Assembly: GCA_937899245.1 (NCBI GenBank)
Contig: CALDKB010000047.1
Location: 8,884-72,883 of the forward strand
DNA: 64,000 bases
Direction: 5' to 3'
Origin: an uncultured Bacteroidales bacterium
GTDB taxonomy: Bacteria > Bacteroidota > Bacteroidia > Bacteroidales > ML635J-15
The translations under genes and the position numbers were made by a program. Within the stretch, counting starts at the first letter, position 1, and every line of letters starts with the position of its first letter. This document shows positions 1 through 11,082 of the stretch, piece by piece. A model generated the notes under the pieces. It did no database searches, was not told the origin of the DNA, and saw only the letters and a program-made list of their open reading frames with translations.

Positions 1-1190
1 TCAGCCATTGTGACATCAAGCGACGAAAGGAAACGGCTTCTAACATCGGGAAGCGTATCCACTTCTTGCTTTATCTTGTAGCCCGTTCGCAGTCTGTAGC
101 GCGAATGTGAAATGCCAGCCGACAGGAATGTCTTGCTGCCAAGTATGCGCTTGTATTGTACCGATGCCATCACATTCCCCCACATATAACCAAGACGGAA
201 CTGCTGTGGATTCACATAATAACCTGTTTGCTTTTTGCTTCGCAATCCAAGGTAGTCGTCACCGATATAAAGGTTTACAGTAAGCTTGTCCTTGTCGGTA
301 GAACTCCACGAAAATTTTCCGTTTAGGTCGTAGAAACCATATCCGATAAGATAGTTCTGGTCGGCTAGATAAGATGCAAAGAGCAACAACGCGCCAATCA
401 TAGTCTTTCGTGCGCATACTATATAGCTTGAGTTTTTCAGTCCGGCAGGACCTTCAGCCGTAGCCGAAATGTCAGTAATACCGACATGCAGCGAACCGCA
501 ATGCTTGTTCTTGTTGCCTTCCTTCTGGGTTATGTCAACAATCGACGACAATTTGCCACCGTATCTTGCAGGGAATCCGCCCTTGTATATGCGTATGTCG
601 TTTATTATGTCGGGGTTGAAGGTTGAGAAAAATCCACCGAGATGATTTACATAAATGATAGGAACATTGTCGAAAAGGTACATGTTTTCGCCAGGATTTC
701 CACCTCTTACATTCAATACGCTTGTGCCTTCGCGCTGGGTGCTGATTCCTGGCAAAAGCGACATTCCCTTTGCAATGTCGGGCTTGCCACCCATTGATGG
801 AAGTTCGGATATTTCCTTTATGCTCATTTCCGACACATTACCGCCCTGCTTTCTGCCCTGCGCCATAACTGTTACCTCTCCTAGCATCTGCCTGTCGGGT
901 GCAAGCGAAATTCTGAGCGGAAGTTTTGTTTTTGCATCTACCGTAAGCCTTTCGGTTGCATAGCCTATGAACGATACCGAAACTTTTGCAGGCAACATGG
1001 TATGAAGGCAGAAATATCCAGAATTGTCGGTTACGCTCCAGCTATTTCCTGCGCTATCCACCACATTCGCACCAATAAGCACCTCGCCGGTTTCGGCATC
1101 GGCGACTATACCCGAAACCGAAACCTTGTTCTGGCAGATTGCAGCCAAGGTAATGCACGATAAAATCAATATTGCGATTAGCTTTCTCAT
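1..1190 (-). CDS. TonB-dependent receptor, N-terminal part only (gene runs off the left edge)
   Basis: Absent from the ORF track because there is no stop in the window. My minus-strand translation from the ATG at 1190-1188 gives MRKLIAILILSCITLAAICQNKVSVSGIVADAETGEVLIGANV... (signal peptide plus carboxypeptidase-regulatory-like domain). A plug-like stretch follows: PSMGGKPDIAKGMSLLPGISTQREGTSVLNVRGGNPGENMYLFDNVPI...IYKGGFPARYGGKLSSIVDI. Both parts are collinear with the 948-aa receptor at 2771-5617. The start overlaps the upstream stop (ATGA). Confidence 0.8.
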   Translation of the reverse strand, partial: MRKLIAILILSCITLAAICQNKVSVSGIVADAETGEVLIGANVVDSAGNSWSVTDNSGYFCLHTMLPAKVSVSFIGYATERLTVDAKTKLPLRISLAPDRQMLGEVTVMAQGRKQGGNVSEMSIKEISELPSMGGKPDIAKGMSLLPGISTQREGTSVLNVRGGNPGENMYLFDNVPIIYVNHLGGFFSTFNPDIINDIRIYKGGFPARYGGKLSSIVDITQKEGNKNKHCGSLHVGITDISATAEGPAGLKNSSYIVCARKTMIGALLLFASYLADQNYLIGYGFYDLNGKFSWSSTDKDKLTVNLYIGDDYLGLRSKKQTGYYVNPQQFRLGYMWGNVMASVQYKRILGSKTFLSAGISHSRYRLRTGYKIKQEVDTLPDVRSRFLSSLDVTMA

Positions 1191-2095
1191 CGTTGCCATA
1201 TATTTGGTGGATAAATTGTGTCGGTATGCTCGGTATATGCCGCAAATACTCCTAAACCGTTTTCAACATTCGAGTAAACGTTGAACACTACTGGATTGTC
1301 GATAATACCTTCGGAGTAGCGACCTTCATAATATAGGTAGTGCATTCGAGTGAACTTGTAGTAGTTCTCGTCAACAGCACGGAATCTCACAAGCAATGGA
1401 CGGATTATTTGGACTAGAGTATCGTTGTAAACTGCCCCGCCATGGACATGAGTCATAAACTTGAGCGTGACGGAGAAGTTTTCACCAGAAGCTAATTCGT
1501 TGGAGAACAGCGGCAACGGCAGTCCTTCGTTCTTGATAATCGGGTCGGTTATATCCAGAAGAGATGTCCCACCATAATGATCATATCCTTCTACTGTATA
1601 AATCTTTATCTCGTAATATTTGCGCTGATTTTTAATATTGCCGATAGTAGTAACAACTCCTTGCAAAAGTTCTCCAGAATCATCAACTCCCGCATTTGCA
1701 ATATATTCGAAACCGAGTGGAATTTCTTTCTGTGGCACTATGCAATGACACCTGGCGGTATCGCCATTATATGCAACCACACATTCAAGGCTATCGTTCT
1801 CGTTGGCTACAACAGTAGAAACATAATAGCCGTCGCCTTCGTAGCTTAAAGTTTCGGCAAGGTTTCCGTTTATATACAGATTAACCGCTGCATTATCTAC
1901 AAAGGCAAGGGTTGAATCGTTTATGTTACCCGTGAGCGAAACATTTACCAACAGCGGCTCGCCGGCCTTCGCTATTGAGTTTACCGTTATCTTCTGCGGA
2001 TAGTCGGGAAACTTGTCGGTTACGACCTTGCGGCAGGAGGATAATCCTGCAGCAAGTATGGCAACAATAAATATGTAGGGTACAAAGTTCTTCAT
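1187..2095 (-). CDS. DUF4249-family outer-membrane lipoprotein (302 aa)
   Basis: Lipoprotein signal (LAAGLSSC). The C-terminal signature YSNVENGLGVFAAYT is what I associate with DUF4249. Paralogous to 5614-6585. 4-nt ATGA overlaps on both sides. Confidence 0.7.
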   Translation of the reverse strand: MKNFVPYIFIVAILAAGLSSCRKVVTDKFPDYPQKITVNSIAKAGEPLLVNVSLTGNINDSTLAFVDNAAVNLYINGNLAETLSYEGDGYYVSTVVANENDSLECVVAYNGDTARCHCIVPQKEIPLGFEYIANAGVDDSGELLQGVVTTIGNIKNQRKYYEIKIYTVEGYDHYGGTSLLDITDPIIKNEGLPLPLFSNELASGENFSVTLKFMTHVHGGAVYNDTLVQIIRPLLVRFRAVDENYYKFTRMHYLYYEGRYSEGIIDNPVVFNVYSNVENGLGVFAAYTEHTDTIYPPNIWQR

Positions 2096-2649
2096 TTTGT
2101 CAGGAATCTAAAGCATAAGCCGAAATTTATAACATTCTGGAAATTACTTCTTTTAGGTTTGCCCGTAAGCATAAAGCCCCACCTGTATTCAAGATTAAGT
2201 CCTATGTGCTTTGCAAAATAAATGGAGGCTCCCAATCCGATGTCATCGCAGAGGTAGTAAAACACTCCATACGACTTAAAATAAATAAGGTTTACGGAGA
2301 AAACATCCGTTACATATACGCAAACGCGGAAAAACCTATTGTCTGGCTTTATGAAAAACGGCAATATGTGGAAATTGTTCTTGATTCCTACGAAATGTGT
2401 GCCTCTACCTAATGATTCTTTGCTTAGGCTATAGTACAATCCTGGTTCCCAGAATTTAGTCACACCATAGCAAGCCGACAGCGAAAAAGCATCTCTTCTT
2501 ACCCTTTGGACTTCTTCGTTCATTAAATCTCGTTTCTGCAGTGTGTAAGAAACATCAAAATAAAGTCTATCCTTAATATAGGCAGACTTCTGTGCAAAAG
2601 CCAACACGCTAATAGTGCTAAGAAAATATAGTAAGAACAAATGTTTCAT
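2092..2649 (-). CDS. small predicted outer-membrane beta-barrel-like protein (~185 aa)
   Basis: The ORF track gives 2092-2676. The internal Met at 2649 (MKHLFLLYFLSTISVLAFAQK) yields a clean signal peptide with Gln at +1. Alternating aromatic/hydrophobic strands and a C-terminal ...NFGLCFRF. Distant paralog of 6582-7178 and of the tail of the 948-aa receptor. Confidence 0.5.
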   Translation of the reverse strand: MKHLFLLYFLSTISVLAFAQKSAYIKDRLYFDVSYTLQKRDLMNEEVQRVRRDAFSLSACYGVTKFWEPGLYYSLSKESLGRGTHFVGIKNNFHILPFFIKPDNRFFRVCVYVTDVFSVNLIYFKSYGVFYYLCDDIGLGASIYFAKHIGLNLEYRWGFMLTGKPKRSNFQNVINFGLCFRFLTK

Positions 2650-2673
2650 ACCATCTTGTTTATTATTACCTAG

Positions 2674-2681
2674 CAAAGGTA
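2674..2681 (-). promoter_or_regulatory. candidate Bacteroidota -7 box (TAccTTTG on the minus strand) for the second cassette
   Basis: The plus strand reads caaaggta, which matches TAnnTTTG on the minus strand. It lies 25-32 nt upstream of the ATG at 2649. Confidence 0.35.
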
Positions 2682-2770
2682 AGTATAATATTGCACAGAA
2701 AAAAATATTTCGTAAGATTTATTTTGTAGATGGGGTGTCAACTTCGTTTATTTCAACTGGCGCAATAGTC

Positions 2771-5617
2771 TCAGAAATTCACATTCATTCTCCACGTCAA
2801 CACGTGATACTTGTTGTCGATGATTTTGCGTGGCGAGAACTTGTAGAAGAAATCCAACGAAATTCGCTTGCGGAACATGTTTACCGAAATACCCGGAGCG
2901 GCATAACCCGAGAAATAATCCGACTTTTTGATTCCCGCATTTGCGCCAGCGGTTTCCTCCTTTACGTGTCCATAGTAGGCAGACACTTCAAGGAACGGAT
3001 GGAAGTATTTCAGATATGGATATTTTACACGGCACAGCAGTCCGTAACGGGTATCGAATGTAGTCCTTGATACTTTGGTGTTTAGTTTGCCATTATCGTA
3101 GAAACCCGAGAACTCCGCACCTACCGACAAGTAATCGAATATTCCGTAGGTGTATCGTCCAGCAAAAACCAATGGCTTATAGAATTTCATGTCACCGAGA
3201 TAAGGATTTATCTGGAAACCAATAGAATGTCTGTGGAAAATTTCCTGAAATTCCTTTCGTGATTCCAAATATGGTCTTACGCGTTCGAGTAAACTTGCAG
3301 TGTTGAAATTTACACTATACGATATTGCTGGCATGAAGGGGAATATACTTAACTGATGCATATTGCCACCATAATCAATATAGTACAGATATGGATTCTT
3401 TCTATTATAAGCATTTATTACACTAAGAGTCAAAGTTCTTTCACCCCAGTGCAACGACTTTACGAAATTGAAACCAAGATCGAGACGATGATAAGGCTTC
3501 ATCCTGTAATTATAAATTTCATCATATACATAAGAAAACCTTCCGTCTTCGTTGTACATATATCCAACGGGAACGGTTATAGGCGCACCTGTTGCTATTG
3601 CCCAGTTTGCCGAAATTGAGAACTTGTTGCTTATCGCCCAGTTGAGCGAAATGCTGAAACTGTGCGTGCGGTCGTTGTCGGCAAGGAAGTACTCGCCTTT
3701 GTTTATTCCTTCGAACTGCCTTCTGTTTCGCGATAGCGAATATCCCATGAAACCTGTGAGACTTCCGCGAGTCTTGGTTAGCAAAAATTCTATTCCCATT
3801 GCCTTTCCATTACCTCCGGTAGCAAGCAGGTCGAGGTCGGTGATGTTTTCGATCATGCCTTCAACCGAAATATTACGCTTCATCATGGCAAGGTTCGACA
3901 TCTTCTTGTAGTAGGCTTCGATTGATGTTTCGAGCATTCCGTCAAGGAAACTGCGGGCTATGCCAATATCAAACTGGTCCGACTTTGCCGGCTGAAGTTT
4001 TCCAGTCGAAACTATCCATCGGTCGGCATAAATGTTCATCACATTGCCAGTAACGCATTGTATGTTCTGGTGTATCCGCGAATATGCCAGTTTTATTGTG
4101 AATACCTTTGGAATACTGAACGTTACTAAAGCGCGTGGTTCGGGCTGCCAGTACGACTTTTCCCCACCGATGTCGTAATAGTGCACCATGCGGAATCCAA
4201 TATTAGAAGATACGTATTTCCCGAAATACATTTCGCCAAGAATATATGCCGATGTTTCGTTGGAATAGATGTGAGATGCATGCTTTTTGTCATAGTACAC
4301 AAGCGAATCGTTTACATAACTTTGCAACTTTGTGCTATATGGCATCGACACGAAAAACGATTCGGAAATTCCAGCACGGAGCACCGATTTCCCCCACATT
4401 TTCCAACTTATGTCGGCAGCAAGGCGGACATCCATTATGTTTACCGCATTTTTGAACACAATAGAAGATATTGAATCGTGGTTATATGTGTCGTTGAACT
4501 TTGCAAGGCTCGTGCTGTGGTAGTCGGTGAGGCTAAGATTTATGCGGCTGGTGGTTCGGTCGTCGAACTTGTGGTCCCACTTCAGCGATGCCATCTTGTT
4601 GCCACCCGAAATTCGAAAACGCGAAACATCACGTTTCCCATAAACATCGTTACCGATTTTGTAGATGTCATCGCCAATGTAAGTTCCGAAACGCAAAGTG
4701 TTCTTATCGTTGAACTTATGGTTTATCTTGAAGTTTAAATCCCAGAATGTGTAGGCTATTTTCTGGTCGTGAAGAAACAGCGAAGAGGCAGGATACATAA
4801 TGAGGTCGTACATAAAACGGCGGATGGAAAACAGCATCGAGGTCTTTTTGTTTTTCAATGGACCACCGAGGCTCAACTTGCAGTCGAGCAGACCGATGGT
4901 AAGGTTTCCGCGCGTCATGTCCTCCACATTGCGTGTCTCCACCTCCATAACTGATGACAACCGTCCTCCATAATTGGCAGGAAATCCGCCTTTTATCAGG
5001 TTGGCGCTTTCAACAATGTCGGCATCGAATGTCGAAAGGATTCCACCAATGTGGTTTACGCTGAAAAGCGGAGTTCCGTCGAGGATGTAAAGATTTTGAC
5101 CGAAGTCGCCACCACGCACGCTTATGCCAGCACGACTTTCGTTACCTGCACCTACGCCCGGCATCATCTGGAAAGCTCGCATTATATCTGGCTCGCCACC
5201 TATGGAAGGAATGTATTTTATCTGTTCGCCTGTTAACCGCATTGTACTCACTTCCAGACGTTTTTCTATCGGCACTCTTTCAATTACAGTAACTTCCGAC
5301 AAGGTATGCCCCTGCTTCATTATTATGTCGAAATGCGTGTTTTTGTTGAGTTTCAGTGCGAACATCGTTTCGGTATAGGAAACGTGCGATACGTTTATCA
5401 GTACGCTGTCACCATTTTTGAAATACATTTCGTAGTAGCCGTATTCGTTTGACGAAGTGCCCTTGCCCGAATACACGTCGCTGAGGTTTGCATCGGCAAT
5501 ACGGTCGCGCGAACCTTCGCACACAACATATCCCGACAATTTCACGTCCTGCGCCGATGCTAGACAGCAAAACATTATCAGCATTGCCAATGTCAATATG
5601 TGCTTTACTTTTTTCAT
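2771..5617 (-). CDS. TonB-dependent receptor (CarboxypepD_reg + plug + barrel) with an extra ~177-aa C-terminal small-OMP-like domain
   Basis: 948 aa. Signal peptide ...CLASAQD, CarboxypepD_reg-like N-terminus, and plug motifs (IPSIGGEPDIMRAFQMMPGV, VRGGDFGQNLYILDG, GGFPANYGGRLSSVMEV). A canonical barrel terminus ...PAISYSVNF is followed by 177 more residues that resemble the 198-aa protein. Confidence 0.85.
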   Translation of the reverse strand: MKKVKHILTLAMLIMFCCLASAQDVKLSGYVVCEGSRDRIADANLSDVYSGKGTSSNEYGYYEMYFKNGDSVLINVSHVSYTETMFALKLNKNTHFDIIMKQGHTLSEVTVIERVPIEKRLEVSTMRLTGEQIKYIPSIGGEPDIMRAFQMMPGVGAGNESRAGISVRGGDFGQNLYILDGTPLFSVNHIGGILSTFDADIVESANLIKGGFPANYGGRLSSVMEVETRNVEDMTRGNLTIGLLDCKLSLGGPLKNKKTSMLFSIRRFMYDLIMYPASSLFLHDQKIAYTFWDLNFKINHKFNDKNTLRFGTYIGDDIYKIGNDVYGKRDVSRFRISGGNKMASLKWDHKFDDRTTSRINLSLTDYHSTSLAKFNDTYNHDSISSIVFKNAVNIMDVRLAADISWKMWGKSVLRAGISESFFVSMPYSTKLQSYVNDSLVYYDKKHASHIYSNETSAYILGEMYFGKYVSSNIGFRMVHYYDIGGEKSYWQPEPRALVTFSIPKVFTIKLAYSRIHQNIQCVTGNVMNIYADRWIVSTGKLQPAKSDQFDIGIARSFLDGMLETSIEAYYKKMSNLAMMKRNISVEGMIENITDLDLLATGGNGKAMGIEFLLTKTRGSLTGFMGYSLSRNRRQFEGINKGEYFLADNDRTHSFSISLNWAISNKFSISANWAIATGAPITVPVGYMYNEDGRFSYVYDEIYNYRMKPYHRLDLGFNFVKSLHWGERTLTLSVINAYNRKNPYLYYIDYGGNMHQLSIFPFMPAISYSVNFNTASLLERVRPYLESRKEFQEIFHRHSIGFQINPYLGDMKFYKPLVFAGRYTYGIFDYLSVGAEFSGFYDNGKLNTKVSRTTFDTRYGLLCRVKYPYLKYFHPFLEVSAYYGHVKEETAGANAGIKKSDYFSGYAAPGISVNMFRKRISLDFFYKFSPRKIIDNKYHVLTWRMNVNF

Positions 5618-6585
5618 CTGCGCATTATCGTGTCAGTCATTGTGGAATATGAAGCAAAGATGCCATATCCGTTTTCGATGTTTGAGTATATGTCAACAGG
5701 AATAGAGGAAAGGGTCTCTCCGTTTGCTAAATCTTCGAAAAAATCCTCTTCATGATATTCCTGCATCATACGGCTACGACGATATTCGTAGTACGATTCA
5801 GAAATGGACTTCACGGTGATTTCAAGGTCATATTTCGCCATTGCAACGTACATCAAGTAGTTATATATGACTTCCAAATTGTGGTTGCCGCTGCTGAAAT
5901 AGTCGTCAGTAAAAAGCAGTACTCTGTTGTTAAAAGGTAGACATTCGCTTTGCGTAAGCACCTTGTCGGTATTACGAGAACTATTGAAATAAATCCATTC
6001 ATATTCAACATCGTATTTGTCGCTTACAGCCCTGCAACTCATCTCATAAAAATTTCGCGATGGGATAGTGTCTTTTATCGTGAGGCTTAATCTTGACAAT
6101 GGATAACCTTCTTCGTCAACGGTAACAGTATCGCGAAAACTCATGTTGCTGAGCACAGGCATGTTGTACAATGTTGTTGTCGCCTTACATTCCTTATAGC
6201 CCGGAGCATTTACCACTAGTGTATATGTTGAACCGACCTTGGGGTATTTGTCCGAAACATAATAACCTTCGCCTTCATATTCTAGAGAACAGAGTAACAC
6301 ACCATCCTCGTATATCAAAACAGAAGCATCTTCGATACAATACTTTGGCTTTGGCACATGCAGGGAATATATATCCCCATTTTCTTGGGTATCATTCACC
6401 ACGTTATATGATTCTGGTGCAATTGGCATTACAGCGGAGATACTCACGCTAATAGGCGATTCGGGAGTAATTATAGAGTTTATTACTATGGCAGGCTCCA
6501 CATCGGGAAAGTCAAACTCGATTTCCCGATTGCAGGAGGAGAGCATTGCAAGCAAAAAAAACAATATTGAAATCCTTATTTTCAT
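5614..6585 (-). CDS. DUF4249-family outer-membrane lipoprotein (323 aa)
   Basis: Lipoprotein signal (LAMLSSC). C-terminal YSNIENGYGIFASYS signature. ATGA overlaps with both neighbours. Confidence 0.7.
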   Translation of the reverse strand: MKIRISILFFLLAMLSSCNREIEFDFPDVEPAIVINSIITPESPISVSISAVMPIAPESYNVVNDTQENGDIYSLHVPKPKYCIEDASVLIYEDGVLLCSLEYEGEGYYVSDKYPKVGSTYTLVVNAPGYKECKATTTLYNMPVLSNMSFRDTVTVDEEGYPLSRLSLTIKDTIPSRNFYEMSCRAVSDKYDVEYEWIYFNSSRNTDKVLTQSECLPFNNRVLLFTDDYFSSGNHNLEVIYNYLMYVAMAKYDLEITVKSISESYYEYRRSRMMQEYHEEDFFEDLANGETLSSIPVDIYSNIENGYGIFASYSTMTDTIMRR

Positions 6586-7178
6586 TTGCTGTTGAAGTTA
6601 TAGCCGATACGCCATGAGAAATATATCTTATGCTCTCCGATATTGCCACGATTCGAAAAATTGCACATTAAATCGAGTTGCAGATGATTCTTGAACATGT
6701 GAAAAGATATGCCAGGTGCGCCATAAATGCAAAATGAGTTAGTAATGGAACATTGGTTTTCAGAACCATAACAACCTTTGTTGTATTGTGTCCAATACTC
6801 ATATCCGACGAACAGTTCGACAAATGGGCGCACATAGTAAAAGCGATTTAATGAAGCCTTTCCAAATATTCCCGAAGTTATGCTATGCGATAAAGTAGTC
6901 CGTTGCTTCCATGTCCAAGCATAAATGTTAGCCCCGACACAAATATTTTTGTGTACTTTATAATTGTAACTTAACCCGAAATCGTAGGCATATCCGTTGT
7001 TATAAAAGAATTTATGATAACCCCTGATGTTCTTGGCTTTAGTGATGAAGTGGGGATTAAACCTTATACTGATATTGTGCTTGTATTCAAATTTTTCGTG
7101 TTGCTGCTCTTGTGCAAATGATACATTTGCAACAAGAATCAGCAACAAAAAAATGATATTTCTCATGCCTATTTGCAT
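6582..7178 (-). CDS. small predicted outer-membrane beta-barrel-like protein (198 aa)
   Basis: Signal peptide ...NVSFAQE (alternative start MRNIIF at 7166). Aromatic-rich alternating strands. The C-terminus GAPGISFHMFKNHLQLDLMCNF...YFSWRIGYNF parallels the receptor tail AAPGISVNMFRKRISLDFFYKF...LTWRMNVNF. Confidence 0.5.
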   Translation of the reverse strand: MQIGMRNIIFLLLILVANVSFAQEQQHEKFEYKHNISIRFNPHFITKAKNIRGYHKFFYNNGYAYDFGLSYNYKVHKNICVGANIYAWTWKQRTTLSHSITSGIFGKASLNRFYYVRPFVELFVGYEYWTQYNKGCYGSENQCSITNSFCIYGAPGISFHMFKNHLQLDLMCNFSNRGNIGEHKIYFSWRIGYNFNSK

Positions 7179-8215
7179 AAATTAGGATTACATGTTAGGT
7201 TAACTCGACCAGTACTCGGTGTACTTGCCCAAGAATCTATTGAGCCAATATGCATCTGTGGAGCTACTGTAACGTTCCATTTTTGGTGGTATATCAAATC
7301 ACCCTCTAACTTAGAGTCAAGAGTTCCTGAATTTGCGTAATGTCCTGTTTGATATGACCAAGTACCCATACAATACATATCAGCTCTGGCATTCAAGTCA
7401 CAACTTATTGTTCTTGAGCACCAAAACCATGCACCCGTCTTTTTTAGCGGTCTAATTAAATAGTGAACAATAAATAAAGCTGTTTGGCTTTGGCAATATA
7501 ATTCTTGGTAAACTTGTATACGGGTTTTATTATTTCCATTAATAACTTCGTTTTCCATCCCAGTTCCACAATTATATGCCGCATCTCTAATTTGTTCCGT
7601 TTTGTGATAAAACAATCTTTTGTACTTTGCTGTATCTTCCAAATATTCGACAAGATTAAGTGTTGTTATGTTCTTCATTTCGTCTTTTAAAGAAACATCT
7701 CCAATTATATAGTCGTTTCCGATATATTTGTACAAATCATTATCAATCTGAAACATCATATCCTTGTTCAGAAAACAACTGAAAGGAATGGCATCTGATT
7801 TAACATCCATTACATAGTCGCCTGCACTATCTTTTGACATTACTATATAGTCACTATATGTTTCTGCAATGTTTCTAAATTCTTCAACTGTATTAAAACT
7901 CTCAAAATCAATAGATTTGTACAGTTCTTCGCAAGTGCGCGCATACGAACAGAAATTTTTCCCTTTTTCATATTCGGCTTTTTCTTCCTCCGACAAACTA
8001 TAGTATTCTTTTAGCTGTTTTTGAAAATCTTCTATATTTTCAAATTTAAAAATGTTGCTAGATGCTGTAACTAGCTTTTTTGTGTCTAAGCTTTCTTCTT
8101 TTTCACAACTACAGTTAAACATTGTTAATGCACACACTACCATTACGTAAATGGCAACCTTTAATAAATCAATTCTTCTCATATTATTAATATGTTTTAA
8201 ATTAAACACACACAA
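7169..8215 (-). CDS. hypothetical Cys-rich secreted/lipoprotein (348 aa), first gene of the cassette array
   Basis: Long ORF, visibly AT-rich. The N-terminus (likely true start MRRIDLLK at 8182) has a hydrophobic segment ending FNCSC. About ten Cys in the mature part. No family recognised. Confidence 0.55.
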   Translation of the reverse strand: MCVFNLKHINNMRRIDLLKVAIYVMVVCALTMFNCSCEKEESLDTKKLVTASSNIFKFENIEDFQKQLKEYYSLSEEEKAEYEKGKNFCSYARTCEELYKSIDFESFNTVEEFRNIAETYSDYIVMSKDSAGDYVMDVKSDAIPFSCFLNKDMMFQIDNDLYKYIGNDYIIGDVSLKDEMKNITTLNLVEYLEDTAKYKRLFYHKTEQIRDAAYNCGTGMENEVINGNNKTRIQVYQELYCQSQTALFIVHYLIRPLKKTGAWFWCSRTISCDLNARADMYCMGTWSYQTGHYANSGTLDSKLEGDLIYHQKWNVTVAPQMHIGSIDSWASTPSTGRVNLTCNPNLCK

Positions 8216-8463
8216 AACTAATCAATAATCCAATACAAACAAAATGTTTTATAACATATAATTTTAATATCTGTTATAATATTCATTTTGTGCTTTTTTG
8301 CTGTTAAAGGCACCAATGCATGTCGTTGTCTCTGCCATGCTGAGCGATTTGTACTGAGCATAGCCGAAGAAAGTCGAAGCGCAGCCTACGACATTGCACT
8401 TCCAGAGCTCCTGCCTTGACAATATTCTGCTAATTGTCAATTTTTAATTGATTGGTCCGCAAA

Positions 8464-11082
8464 TTAGCGTTTTTTAAGTTTCAGCTGCTTGTTAAACTCT
8501 TGCTTCGAAATCGATGTGCGGACTAACACTTTCTTTTCTACGTTCGGCAAAAGGTCGAAATAGTTGTCGCTGAAGAAGTTGTCGATTCCGTTTATGCTTA
8601 GGAAAACGCCACGGGCAAAGGTCTTGCTGCAGAGGGTAACAAGTATTCCGCCGTCAACCTTTTCCGATTTCCATTTTATGTTTGCCTTCGGGAAGCGCAT
8701 TTCCTTGTTAGTGCAAAGGAAGTAAATGTTGTCGGCAATTTGCTTTGAATCATTGCTTTGCAGGGTGGTATAAATGAAAATATCGTTTGGCGACTTGCCA
8801 TTGAGAATTTCGAAAACAGGTCGCGAAAAATGAATTTCGCTTGCGTTGGCCTTAATGCTAACGTGTGATTCTTCGTTGAAAATTACGTTGCCGCGGAAAT
8901 CCATAATGCTAACTGTTAGGCAGCCGTCGAAAGTGGCGAGCGAGTCGGAAACGGCAAAGACATACAGGGTGCTATCCTTTACGATTGGCGATACCAAAAT
9001 GTTACGGTAGGCCTTGCGAGCAAAATAGTGCTGAGCTTTCCAGCGTCCGTAAAAATCGCGGCTCGACCACGAGGCGACAGGCCAGCAGTCGTTGTGCTGC
9101 CAGAAAAGCGTGCCCATACAGTAAGGTTTGTCGCGTCGGTGTGCTTCGATGGCTATTTTAATTGCGTCGCCTTGCATAAGCTGGCTAAGATATAGCGTCT
9201 CTTCAAAGTTTTTCGGCTTGCCGTATTCGCTTTCCATATACCACATTATTCGCGAGTTGGCATTCTGCCCGCCACGCTGGTGCGACATCATAACTTCCGA
9301 ATAAATGTTGTGGTCGTTTTTGTCAGGTGCAAATTGCATTACCGACTGGTAGTCGGCGAAAGACTGGAAGCCGTACTCGGAGAAAAAGCGGCAACGTATG
9401 TCGTTGAAAGTGGACAATTTGCCTTCTGTTTGCCAAACGCCCCAGTAATGTCCGTCGCCATCGGGATTCCAGAGCGAATCGCCAGTTTCGGGACGTCCGT
9501 AAGGGTCGCCGTTGTATGGCGATGACGGAACATAGTCGCGTGTGTCGTACTTTTCGACCACTTCGGGTAGGGTTACAAAATAGCAGTCGTAGAACTGTTT
9601 CCAGATCTTTTCGGAAATGCCGTTGCCCATCTGGTCGTACTTGCGCTTGTATCCCCAGCCGTACCAGGCCGCCTGACATTCGTTGTTGCCGCACCACAAA
9701 GCAATGCATGGATGGTTTCGTAGGCGTTTTACGTTGTCGATGGCTTCCTGACGCACGTTTTCGAGCATTTCGCCTTCGGTGGGATAAAGACTGCAAGCAA
9801 ACATAAAGTCCTGCCAAACAAGGATTCCGTACTTGTCGCAAAGGTCGTAGAAGATGTCGTTTTCGTAAATTCCGCCGCCCCACACGCGAAGCATATTCAT
9901 ATTGGCGGATACGGCATCGAGAATTGTGCGTTCGTACATCGAATCGGTGACCTCGGTAAGAAAACTGTGTTGCGGGATGTAGTTGGCGCCTTTCATAAAG
10001 ACGTTTACACCGTTGAGCTGGAAATAGAAGGATGTGCCGTACTGGTCTTTATCGCGAACAAGCTTTAGGTTGCGAAGACCGACGTTTGTCTTGATTTCCT
10101 GTGGGGTACATCCTTGTAGTGTCGTGGCGCGCTCTACAAGGTCTGGATTATTGTTTTCAATCCGAAGCGAAGCGGTAAATTCGTAGAGGTTGGGTTCGCC
10201 AAGTCCGTTGCACCACCATAGTTTTGGCTTTTTAATGATTATTGGAATTTCGATGATGTTGGTTCCGGGAACAAGCTGGCGGGTTATGTTGGCCGTGGCT
10301 GAATTGACATTTTCGTTAGAAGCAGAAATGGTAATGTTTGCCTTGCAACTGCTTGACGCATCGACTTCTATGACGGCATTGATGGCGGCCATATCGTCGC
10401 CGACTTTTATCTGGTCGTACTTTACGTTGCTGATTCTGGCATTGTCCCAAGCATTGATTTCTACTGGTCGCCATATTCCGCTGGTTACAAGTCGCGGTCC
10501 CCAGTCCCAGCCGTAGTGGTAGCCGGCCTTGCGAGCAAAAATTCCCACCTGCTTGTCGCCAATGCCACCGATTTGCGACTGGTCGTTGTCGGAAGCATAG
10601 TGAAAATCAAGTGCGTCGAACTTCGGTATGTCGGTTGTTATTGGCGAGTGAAAATAAATGCGAAGTTCGTTGCCTTTTTGTTTTGCAATGCCTTTTATGT
10701 CGATTTTCCATGTGCGGAACATATTGTCGGCTTGGAGAATAAGACTGTCGTTGAGGTAAACGTCGGCATACGTGTCGAGTCCGTAGAATGTTATTTCAAT
10801 GTTCTGCTTGGAAAACATTTCTTCGTTGAGGTCGAACGTGTTTTTGTACTCCCAGTCTTCCTTGTCAACCCATTGCACGTCGCGTTCGTTCAGACGGAAG
10901 AATGGGTCTTTTATAATACCGTTGTGAATGAGGTCGGTGTGGACAAGACCGGGAACTTCGGACGGCAGCCATTTTTCTGTACCGACCTGACGAAAAGTCC
11001 AATTTGTCGTTATCGTACAAGTCTGTGCAATTGCGAAAATGGAAATAATTACGAATAGTATTGTTGTAAAAAGTGATTTCAT
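8464..11082 (-). CDS. beta-mannosidase, glycoside hydrolase family 2
   Basis: 872 aa. The N-terminus NWTFRQVGTEKWLPSEVPGLVHTDLIHNGIIKDPFFRLNERDVQWVDKEDWEYK is typical of GH2 beta-mannosidases. Signal peptide ...FAIAQT. Confidence 0.9.
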   Translation of the reverse strand: MKSLFTTILFVIISIFAIAQTCTITTNWTFRQVGTEKWLPSEVPGLVHTDLIHNGIIKDPFFRLNERDVQWVDKEDWEYKNTFDLNEEMFSKQNIEITFYGLDTYADVYLNDSLILQADNMFRTWKIDIKGIAKQKGNELRIYFHSPITTDIPKFDALDFHYASDNDQSQIGGIGDKQVGIFARKAGYHYGWDWGPRLVTSGIWRPVEINAWDNARISNVKYDQIKVGDDMAAINAVIEVDASSSCKANITISASNENVNSATANITRQLVPGTNIIEIPIIIKKPKLWWCNGLGEPNLYEFTASLRIENNNPDLVERATTLQGCTPQEIKTNVGLRNLKLVRDKDQYGTSFYFQLNGVNVFMKGANYIPQHSFLTEVTDSMYERTILDAVSANMNMLRVWGGGIYENDIFYDLCDKYGILVWQDFMFACSLYPTEGEMLENVRQEAIDNVKRLRNHPCIALWCGNNECQAAWYGWGYKRKYDQMGNGISEKIWKQFYDCYFVTLPEVVEKYDTRDYVPSSPYNGDPYGRPETGDSLWNPDGDGHYWGVWQTEGKLSTFNDIRCRFFSEYGFQSFADYQSVMQFAPDKNDHNIYSEVMMSHQRGGQNANSRIMWYMESEYGKPKNFEETLYLSQLMQGDAIKIAIEAHRRDKPYCMGTLFWQHNDCWPVASWSSRDFYGRWKAQHYFARKAYRNILVSPIVKDSTLYVFAVSDSLATFDGCLTVSIMDFRGNVIFNEESHVSIKANASEIHFSRPVFEILNGKSPNDIFIYTTLQSNDSKQIADNIYFLCTNKEMRFPKANIKWKSEKVDGGILVTLCSKTFARGVFLSINGIDNFFSDNYFDLLPNVEKKVLVRTSISKQEFNKQLKLKKR

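Follow-up and report, generated by a model that had tools for sequence, protein, structure and literature searches.

Predicted small outer-membrane barrels accompany, and are in places fused to, the receptors of a rare DUF4249-linked transporter cassette in Bacteroidales

In the Bacteroidota of gut and rumen, nutrients enter mainly through TonB-dependent transporters that bear lipoprotein lids, and to our knowledge the partners of such lid-type transporters are so far all lipoproteins. On the basis of conserved adjacency, cofitness and AlphaFold-Multimer, Price et al. (2023, bioRxiv 10.1101/2023.03.17.533168) proposed that the non-SusC transporter BT2172 has the DUF4249 protein BT2173 as its lid. 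Two gene cassettes containing a DUF4249 lipoprotein and a TonB-dependent receptor were analysed here. They are located on the minus strand at positions 1-8215 of a 64,000-nucleotide stretch of DNA from an uncultured Bacteroidales bacterium (C47:8884-72883 of a 2.98-Mb, 62-contig assembly; the whole stretch is called the window). The cassettes are regarded as probable, though far from certain, members of a rare, Bacteroidales-restricted, inverted-order branch of the DUF4249-lid transporter system that is accompanied by one or more small-barrel subunits. An earlier sequence-only reading of the same DNA had described receptor/DUF4249 pairs as lacking an assigned mechanism, a view made outdated by the lid proposal. 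In that preprint, term searches returned no passage on a small-barrel partner or on a partner resembling the additional lipoprotein, LP, described below. Full-text literature searches on DUF4249, DUF4848 and small-barrel partners of Bacteroidota transporters likewise yielded no description of this cassette.

Seven open reading frames (ORFs) were listed on the minus strand of window 1-8215, all of them present where the sequence-only reading had placed them. The first cassette on this strand (cassette A) has the order LP (the lipoprotein heading it), SB198 (a small protein of 198 aa), DUF4249_A and receptor A, the last with a C-terminal SB-type barrel. The second (cassette B) consists of S194 (a small protein listed with 194 aa), DUF4249_B and receptor B, and contains no LP. 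Gene neighbourhoods were surveyed in 401 Bacteroidales genomes from three independent seeds (the SB, S194-like and LP families), and loci of 10-20 kb around the matches were annotated with our own ORF calls and our own hidden Markov models. Strong SB matches were obtained in about 11 genomes, S194-like matches in 12 and DUF4249 matches in 344. From the SB seed, the gene was found directly 5' of a DUF4249 gene and/or a receptor gene in 7 of 10 other genomes, alone in 2, and at a cutting contig end in 1. All ten S194-like loci outside the own genome adjoined a DUF4249-receptor pair or a receptor fragment, and 9 of the 11 assessable LP loci headed a DUF4249-receptor(-barrel) cassette. The control set, chosen by top DUF4249 score instead of at random, consisted of 19 ordinary DUF4249 pairs (18 loci); none of them had a small barrel or an LP. 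Since DUF4249 is present in 344 of the 401 genomes, yet the control pairs are free of barrel and LP, chance adjacency cannot account for the association. The proposal of a third, small-barrel partner in a system distinct from SusC/SusD was thus sustained by enrichment in the neighbourhood survey.

The order of the genes separates the two groups of pairs as well. The receptor preceded DUF4249 in 18 of the 19 control pairs, and DUF4249 preceded the receptor in all barrel-linked cassettes. The barrel gene itself was located before DUF4249 (n=15), after the receptor (n=8), or fused to the receptor C-terminus; LP was present in about half of the barrel-linked cassettes. Overall, the barrel-linked system was found in about 5% of the Bacteroidales genomes, and no match outside the own genome was obtained when 390 further Bacteroidota genomes were searched with the S194-like profile (E<=1e-8). 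Weak SB-profile matches (E 1e-6 to 1e-13; 55 genomes) were set aside after six loci (L041-L046) had turned out to hold other small outer-membrane proteins (OMPs) without DUF4249 linkage. Ordinary DUF4249-receptor pairs are encoded in the same genome too, on C48 and C50. Like BT2172/BT2173, the window cassettes combine a PF14054 lipoprotein with an adjacent, same-strand, plug-bearing non-SusC transporter. They differ from that type in the inverted order (DUF4249 then receptor, instead of the usual receptor then DUF4249), in receptors that form a separate clade and are in some cases extended by a second barrel, and in the small barrel, which is always present in the barrel-linked branch, and LP, which is often present.

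A maximum-likelihood tree of 39 receptors was calculated with IQ-TREE. All barrel-linked receptors but one were placed in a single clade (support 100/99), and the unlinked receptors (22/22) fell outside it. The S194-linked receptors, including receptor B, formed a subclade (support 100/100), apart from which the SB-linked receptors, including the fused receptor A lineage, branched. According to this tree each receptor lineage pairs with its own barrel family, a pattern that would be expected of co-diversifying partners.

The second line of evidence is provided by fusions. Residues ~785-948 of receptor A (948 aa) are homologous to SB198 (BLASTP E 2e-10 over 180 residues): the normal barrel terminus (...ISYSVNF) is followed by a linker of ~26 residues and then by a domain that aligns with mature SB198. 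Judged by similarity, the true paralogue of SB198 is therefore this C-terminal part of receptor A (~150 residues). A word search with the C-terminal region gave 17 clusters of SB-type fused receptors of 947-958 aa, and an exhaustive profile search added two more distant ones (P0030 and P0062), 19 in all with lengths of 944-958 aa. In the alignment of the 19 fused homologues the length of the linker is conserved, its sequence less so. Identities of the receptor barrel and of the fused C-terminal domain, respectively, amounted to 62% and 65% for P0025, 67% and 64% for P0026, 47% and 46% for P0030, and 36% and 36% for P0062; the fused domain changes at the same rate as the receptor barrel. The 19 independent clusters and the equally conserved C-terminal domain rule out that the 948-aa protein arose as an artefact of read-through or assembly. 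A second fusion, of S194-like type, was found in G125 (receptor of 981 aa, barrel domain at residues ~813-980), so that fusion to the receptor C-terminus arose in two independent lineages. One or two free SB genes lie 5' of DUF4249 in the distant fused-receptor lineages P0026 and P0018; the fusion supplements the free barrel and does not replace it.

The fold of SB198 was predicted with AlphaFold2 (AF2) from a 54-sequence alignment, giving eight strands at a predicted local distance difference test (pLDDT) of 86 and a predicted TM-score (pTM) of 0.75. Foldseek returned the transmembrane domain of OmpA (1bxw) as the best match (E 8.5e-6, TM 0.60-0.69), together with OmpX, Ail, NspA and OmpW; the matches to OmpA, OmpX, Ail and NspA had E values of 1e-5 to 1e-4. 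SB198 is confidently predicted to be an 8-stranded barrel; like such barrels, it also has a signal peptide and an aromatic C-terminal strand. At E<=1e-3 the SB family has 85 clusters in a set of 1.84 billion representatives, nearly all of them free-standing proteins of 170-230 aa and three of them fused. Searches of SB198, S194 (185 aa) and the fused domain against Pfam gave no family up to E 10. When family members were scanned singly, PF13505 (OMP_b-brl) was matched by 22 of 54 SB-family and 6 of 13 S194-like members. Direct comparison of SB198 with S194 gave no pairwise similarity (BLASTP E 0.71), and hhalign with shallow profiles only 9-13% probability; on these negative results plain paralogy of the two was dropped. 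An alignment of 13 S194-like sequences compared with the SB family by hhalign gave 50% probability (E 1.6e-4, full length). SB198 and S194 are accordingly treated, on sequence criteria, as separate families that are linked remotely via the OMP_b-brl superfamily, and S194 is a probable, divergent small barrel of OMP_b-brl type. The earlier description of both small proteins as barrels was thus supported by AF2 and Foldseek for SB198 and left unconfirmed for S194 itself.

The DUF4249 assignment was upheld for both lipoproteins by profile search against PF14054, with 99.5 bits (E 3.1e-28) for DUF4249_A and 70.8 bits (E 1.9e-19) for DUF4249_B at a cut-off of 28.5 bits. The lipoprotein N-termini ...AMLSSC and ...AGLSSC were read from the translations. 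Both receptors were found to carry CarbopepD_reg_2 and Plug, in agreement with their earlier description as CarboxypepD_reg TonB-dependent receptors (receptor A: Plug 1.2e-8, CarbopepD_reg_2 3.8e-7; receptor B: CarbopepD_reg_2 5.4e-13, Plug (PF07715) 1.7e-8). In the sequence, the N-terminal domain is followed by a TonB-box-like motif, LSEVTVIE in receptor A and LGEVTVMA in receptor B. Receptor B, correctly reported as cut by the window edge, is complete on the contig at 781 aa and ends in ...SYKVYFGRK without a C-terminal extension. The SusC model TIGR04056 (NCBIfam) gave 67.7 bits for receptor B against a cut-off of 368, and no match for receptor A; scores this far below the cut-off show the receptors not to be SusC-type. 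No meaningful names were obtained from NCBIfam for the cassette proteins, and DUF4249_A, receptor A and the S194 profile, when used as queries against PDB sequences, gave no match.

The lipobox of LP (...FNCSC) precedes an acidic stretch (EKEES), and in the alignment the members of the LP family share the lipobox and then C-x-K-E-(D/E). This motif resembles the surface-export signal of Bacteroidota lipoproteins, and LP may accordingly be exposed at the cell surface. Homologues of LP were found in 17 of the 401 genomes, and none in three genomes of the same genus. The LP profile matched an uncharacterised protein in the PDB (4lb8_A) weakly, over the N-terminal half (E 1.7e-5), and DUF4848 (PF16140) was matched, also weakly (E 0.012), by just 2 of 12 LP-family members. 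The LP gene with its leader (window 7001-8500) has a GC content of 0.32-0.34, compared with 0.39-0.47 (about 0.44) for the cassettes and 0.48-0.51 for the upstream GH2 gene. Because of this low GC content and the lack of a homologue in the same-genus genomes, the LP gene was probably acquired recently. The LP family is a recurrent fourth component of the cassettes; since cassette A also has at least two barrels (free and fused), the three-component machine of the sequence-only reading was too simple.

Further members of the LP family were noted in two places. By jackhmmer, LP is merged with a 353-aa lipoprotein of its own genome; the latter is followed on its contig (G000:C51:53459-55446) by an SB barrel of 211 aa that is 65% identical to one of the tandem copies in G090 (see below), and neither DUF4249 nor a receptor was found within 10 kb of this pair. 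In L078 (1-17681; G273:C1:2076001-2096000) three transporter cassettes stand in a row, each near an LP paralogue; one of them has the order LP, barrel, barrel, DUF4249, receptor, and in another LP precedes a pair with the ordinary gene order.

The features of the locus are collated in Table 1.

Table 1. Features on the minus strand of the two cassettes and their leaders (window positions).
Feature	Position	Strand	Basis and remarks
TAGTTTTG, -7-box-like TAnnTTTG	8213..8220	-	pattern scan; LP leader, 31 nt 5' of ATG 8182
LP lipoprotein, 337 aa	7169..8182	-	ORF; listed as 348 aa from TTG 8215
SB198, 198-aa outer-membrane protein	6582..7178	-	AF2 and Foldseek: predicted 8-stranded OmpA/OmpX-like barrel
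DUF4249_A, 323-aa lipoprotein, putative lid of receptor A	5614..6585	-	Pfam PF14054; lipobox LSSC
Receptor A, residues 1-769	3311..5617	-	signal peptide, CarbopepD_reg_2, TonB-box-like LSEVTVIE, plug, 22-strand-type barrel
Receptor A, interbarrel linker, ~26 residues, NTASLLERVRPYLESRKEFQEIFHRH	3233..3310	-	alignment of 19 fused homologues
Receptor A, fused small-barrel domain, residues 796-948 and stop	2771..3232	-	SB198 paralogue (BLASTP)
TACCTTTG, -7-box-like TAnnTTTG	2674..2681	-	pattern scan; 25 nt 5' of ATG 2649
S194, 185-aa small secreted protein	2092..2649	-	listed as 194 aa from TTG 2676; 'S194-like' family
DUF4249_B, 302-aa lipoprotein	1187..2095	-	Pfam PF14054; lipobox LSSC
Receptor B, first 399 residues	1..1199	-	Pfam; rest beyond the window, to contig C47:7737

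The ATG starts in Table 1 are likely the true ones for LP (337 aa) and for S194 (185 aa), the latter by its match with close homologues, including P0004. Of the five ATGA overlaps reported earlier, those at 6585/6582, 5617/5614 and 2095/2092 were read from the sequence as exact, and that at 1190/1187 is exact only when receptor B starts at the second ATG. At the LP/SB198 junction, instead of an ATGA, the genes overlap by 10 nt, or are separated by 2 nt when counted from the second ATG. Judged by the overlaps, the overlapping genes may be co-translated, and each cassette may be co-transcribed. Cassette B is preceded by an intergenic gap of 121 nt (94 nt to the listed TTG start), in which the TAccTTTG box announced by the sequence-only reading was indeed found (TACCTTTG at 2681-2674). 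Three TAnnTTTG motifs occur on the minus strand in 8.5 kb, against about 4 expected from base composition by our own estimate; two are in the two intergenic leaders and the third falls within the LP gene. As this count is not above chance, TACCTTTG and TAGTTTTG are candidate promoters. Their placing in both intergenic leaders is suggestive, and transcription may initiate at both boxes. A scan for sigma-70 promoters and terminators showed no excess over shuffled sequences and no minus-strand terminator in the region.

Upstream of the LP ORF, at a distance of 248 nt and in the same orientation, lies a GH2-like gene (beta-mannosidase type, 872 aa, window 8464-11082); no evidence of its membership in the cassette was found, and the adjacency is not conserved in relatives. 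In two relatives (L089 2044-4523 and L035 13837-15276) a small CarboxypepD_reg lipoprotein and a radical-SAM/SPASM protein are encoded directly 5' of the small barrels on the same strand, in L089 together with a protein carrying an FGE-sulfatase domain; the window has LP and the GH2 gene instead. Decaying cassettes were noted as well, with a split small barrel in L038 (3504-4081; G145), a split receptor in L051 (2357-4658; G342:C50) and a split DUF4249 in the P0018 locus (L089 5978-7001).

The sequence-only reading had taken the two cassettes to be paralogous, with pair and barrel duplicated in tandem. Paralogy holds for the DUF4249 proteins (27% identity, E 1e-22) and for the receptors (30% identity, E 4e-44), not for the small proteins (E 0.71), and the cassettes are unequal, LP and the fused domain being confined to cassette A. 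The duplication has to be given up: the barrels belong to different families and the receptors to anciently split subclades, and the arrangement differs in relatives. In G219 (same genus) the order is SB220, DUF_A, fused receptor, S194, SB205, DUF_B, receptor B. In G090 (same genus) four tandem SB paralogues are followed by DUF_A and the fused receptor, and S194, DUF_B and receptor B are found on another contig. A recent tandem duplication of the whole cassette was likewise ruled out by the 27-30% identity, the different receptor subclades and the unlinked cassettes in G090. The four SB copies of G090 (L035 10941-13712, G090:C1) are 35-72% identical to one another, and one has an internal TAA stop. 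Window 6591-7173, within SB198, is 97.3% identical at the DNA level to SB205 of G219 (L034 7952-8534), which is located in cassette B; the flanking cassette DNA is 86-93% identical between the two genomes, and the homology junction falls within the conserved 3' end common to the SB paralogues. This identity at a displaced position indicates that SB genes are exchanged between positions, probably by recombination in the conserved gene ends. Fused-receptor alleles are mosaic as well: in P0014 the receptor barrel is 74% and the fused small barrel 92% identical, in P0022 94% and 73%, respectively, and for such alleles (window 2771-5617, P0010-P0026) recombination at or near the linker is suggested.

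For the branch as a whole the following mechanism is envisaged. The transporter would import a substrate via TonB, probably a small one by analogy with other non-SusC lid systems, and DUF4249 would cover the transporter on its outer side, in the manner proposed for BT2172/BT2173. As an accessory subunit, the small barrel would be placed in the membrane next to the 22-strand barrel, an arrangement to which somewhat better than even chances are given. In the fused forms it would be tethered through a linker of ~25 residues on the periplasmic side, which fits the topology because both barrels have even strand numbers. Its role would probably be that of a platform holding or positioning one or more lipoproteins. 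A more specific version, in which the small barrel is a private lipoprotein-mounting device and the tether of LP and/or DUF4249 passes through or along the docked or fused barrel, is considered very improbable; it can be likened to the display of RcsF through OmpA, OmpC and OmpF in E. coli.

Several observations weigh against a fixed partnership of barrel and transporter. The SB-linked receptor of G049 is placed outside the barrel-linked clade, SB genes are mobile between cassettes, and some cassettes have tandem double barrels. Free SB genes are kept upstream in every fused-receptor lineage examined, in 1-4 copies, so that no simple 1:1:1 composition results. Free-standing LP-SB pairs or single genes occur (the G000:C51 pair, an SB by itself in G057, LPs by themselves in L080 and L081). 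The AF2 model of S194, obtained from 7 close sequences only, is all-beta with a pLDDT of 39.7 and leaves its barrel fold unconfirmed. A fusion can equally unite proteins with no more in common than a pathway, and contact between barrel and transporter is predicted from the gene associations. Owing to the variable barrel copy number, the mobility and the lone LP-SB pairs, two other explanations of the small barrels stay alive.

According to one of these, the barrels belong with LP, which they would anchor or expose, in a separate two-part surface module that is often co-encoded and co-regulated with the pairs and forms no single complex with them. LP is indeed encoded immediately 5' of a barrel in the window, in G000:C51 and in L031, L033, L037, L050, L051, L075, L077 and L078, and LP-SB pairs without a nearby DUF4249 or receptor gene are found in G000:C51 and possibly in L031. 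However, in roughly half of the complete cassettes the barrel occurs without LP (L034-L036, L040, L047, L049, L052, L054 and window cassette B), LP and barrel stand at opposite ends of the cassette in L079, L084 and L085, and barrels are fused to the receptor, never to LP; this explanation is held to be unlikely, if not strongly so. Distinctly unlikely, in our judgement, is the other, that the barrels are variable surface proteins (adhesins, or phage or immunity decoys) which are swapped as cassettes and hitch-hike for expression. It would account for the four tandem SB paralogues of G090, for the displaced gene of G219 that matches SB198 more closely than the flanks match, and for the mosaic alleles P0014 and P0022. 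The nearest folds, moreover, are the 8-stranded barrels OmpX, Ail and NspA, and an adhesin role has been put forward for poly-8 barrel proteins from Bacteroides and Prevotella (Solan et al. 2021, bioRxiv 10.1101/2021.02.17.431615; PMC8346858). It leaves unexplained, however, why two barrel families track their own receptor subclades, why barrels are absent from ordinary DUF4249 pairs and why two fusions are kept under receptor-like constraint, and SB198 is predicted to have short extracellular loops, save one of ~19 residues. That the adjacency is meaningless, with generic OMPs placed by chance or by gene-order inertia within one lineage, could be argued from the small, Bacteroidales-confined barrel families and from the L041-L046 matches unlinked to DUF4249. 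Against it stand more than 20 genera-level lineages with differing gene orders and independent fusions, and by our own estimate a gene would be expected to fall by chance <=3 kb from one of the ~3 DUF4249 genes of a 3.5-Mb genome in well under 1% of cases; the surveys bring it close to refutation.

If the accessory-subunit reading holds, a clade with a small integral-membrane barrel as companion, twice fused, would represent a new type of subunit for this class of transporters. Natural 22+8 two-barrel proteins are supplied, whose assembly by BAM (the machinery for beta-barrel assembly) is an open question, and three unannotated families (SB, S194-like and LP) are defined through their genomic context. 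Should the lipoprotein-mounting version be true, the cassettes would carry their own factor for lipoprotein exposure or positioning and would offer a tractable handle on the assembly of surface lipoprotein-barrel complexes in Bacteroidota. With so rare a clade, the immediate biological reach is modest.

Three known systems lend themselves to comparison. A '22-8' family of multi-barrel proteins comprises 99 predicted members in Proteobacteria, mostly Rhizobiales (Solan et al. 2021, bioRxiv 10.1101/2021.02.17.431615; PMC8346858). Receptor A and its 19 homologous clusters share with it, by homology, the architecture of a 22-strand followed by an 8-strand barrel in a single chain; they differ in their occurrence in Bacteroidales, in the free homologue within the same operon, and in having two fusion origins with two barrel families. 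The different phylum suggests an origin independent of the proteobacterial family. With the OmpA, OmpX, Ail, NspA and OmpW barrels SB198 shares the predicted fold; SB198 and S194 are without a periplasmic OmpA_C domain, and strict linkage to a transporter operon is a feature of the window families and not of those barrels.

SusC/SusD (RagA/RagB), finally, have in common with the window cassettes a Bacteroidota TonB-dependent transporter, an N-terminal CarboxypepD_reg-like domain and surface lipoproteins. The barrels of the window receptors are ~200 residues shorter, and no SusD-type Pfam match was obtained on any cassette neighbour. We know of no SusCD system with an integral-membrane small-barrel partner. 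LP, for its part, could by analogy have a role like that of the extra surface glycan-binding lipoproteins of the SusCD 'utilisomes'.

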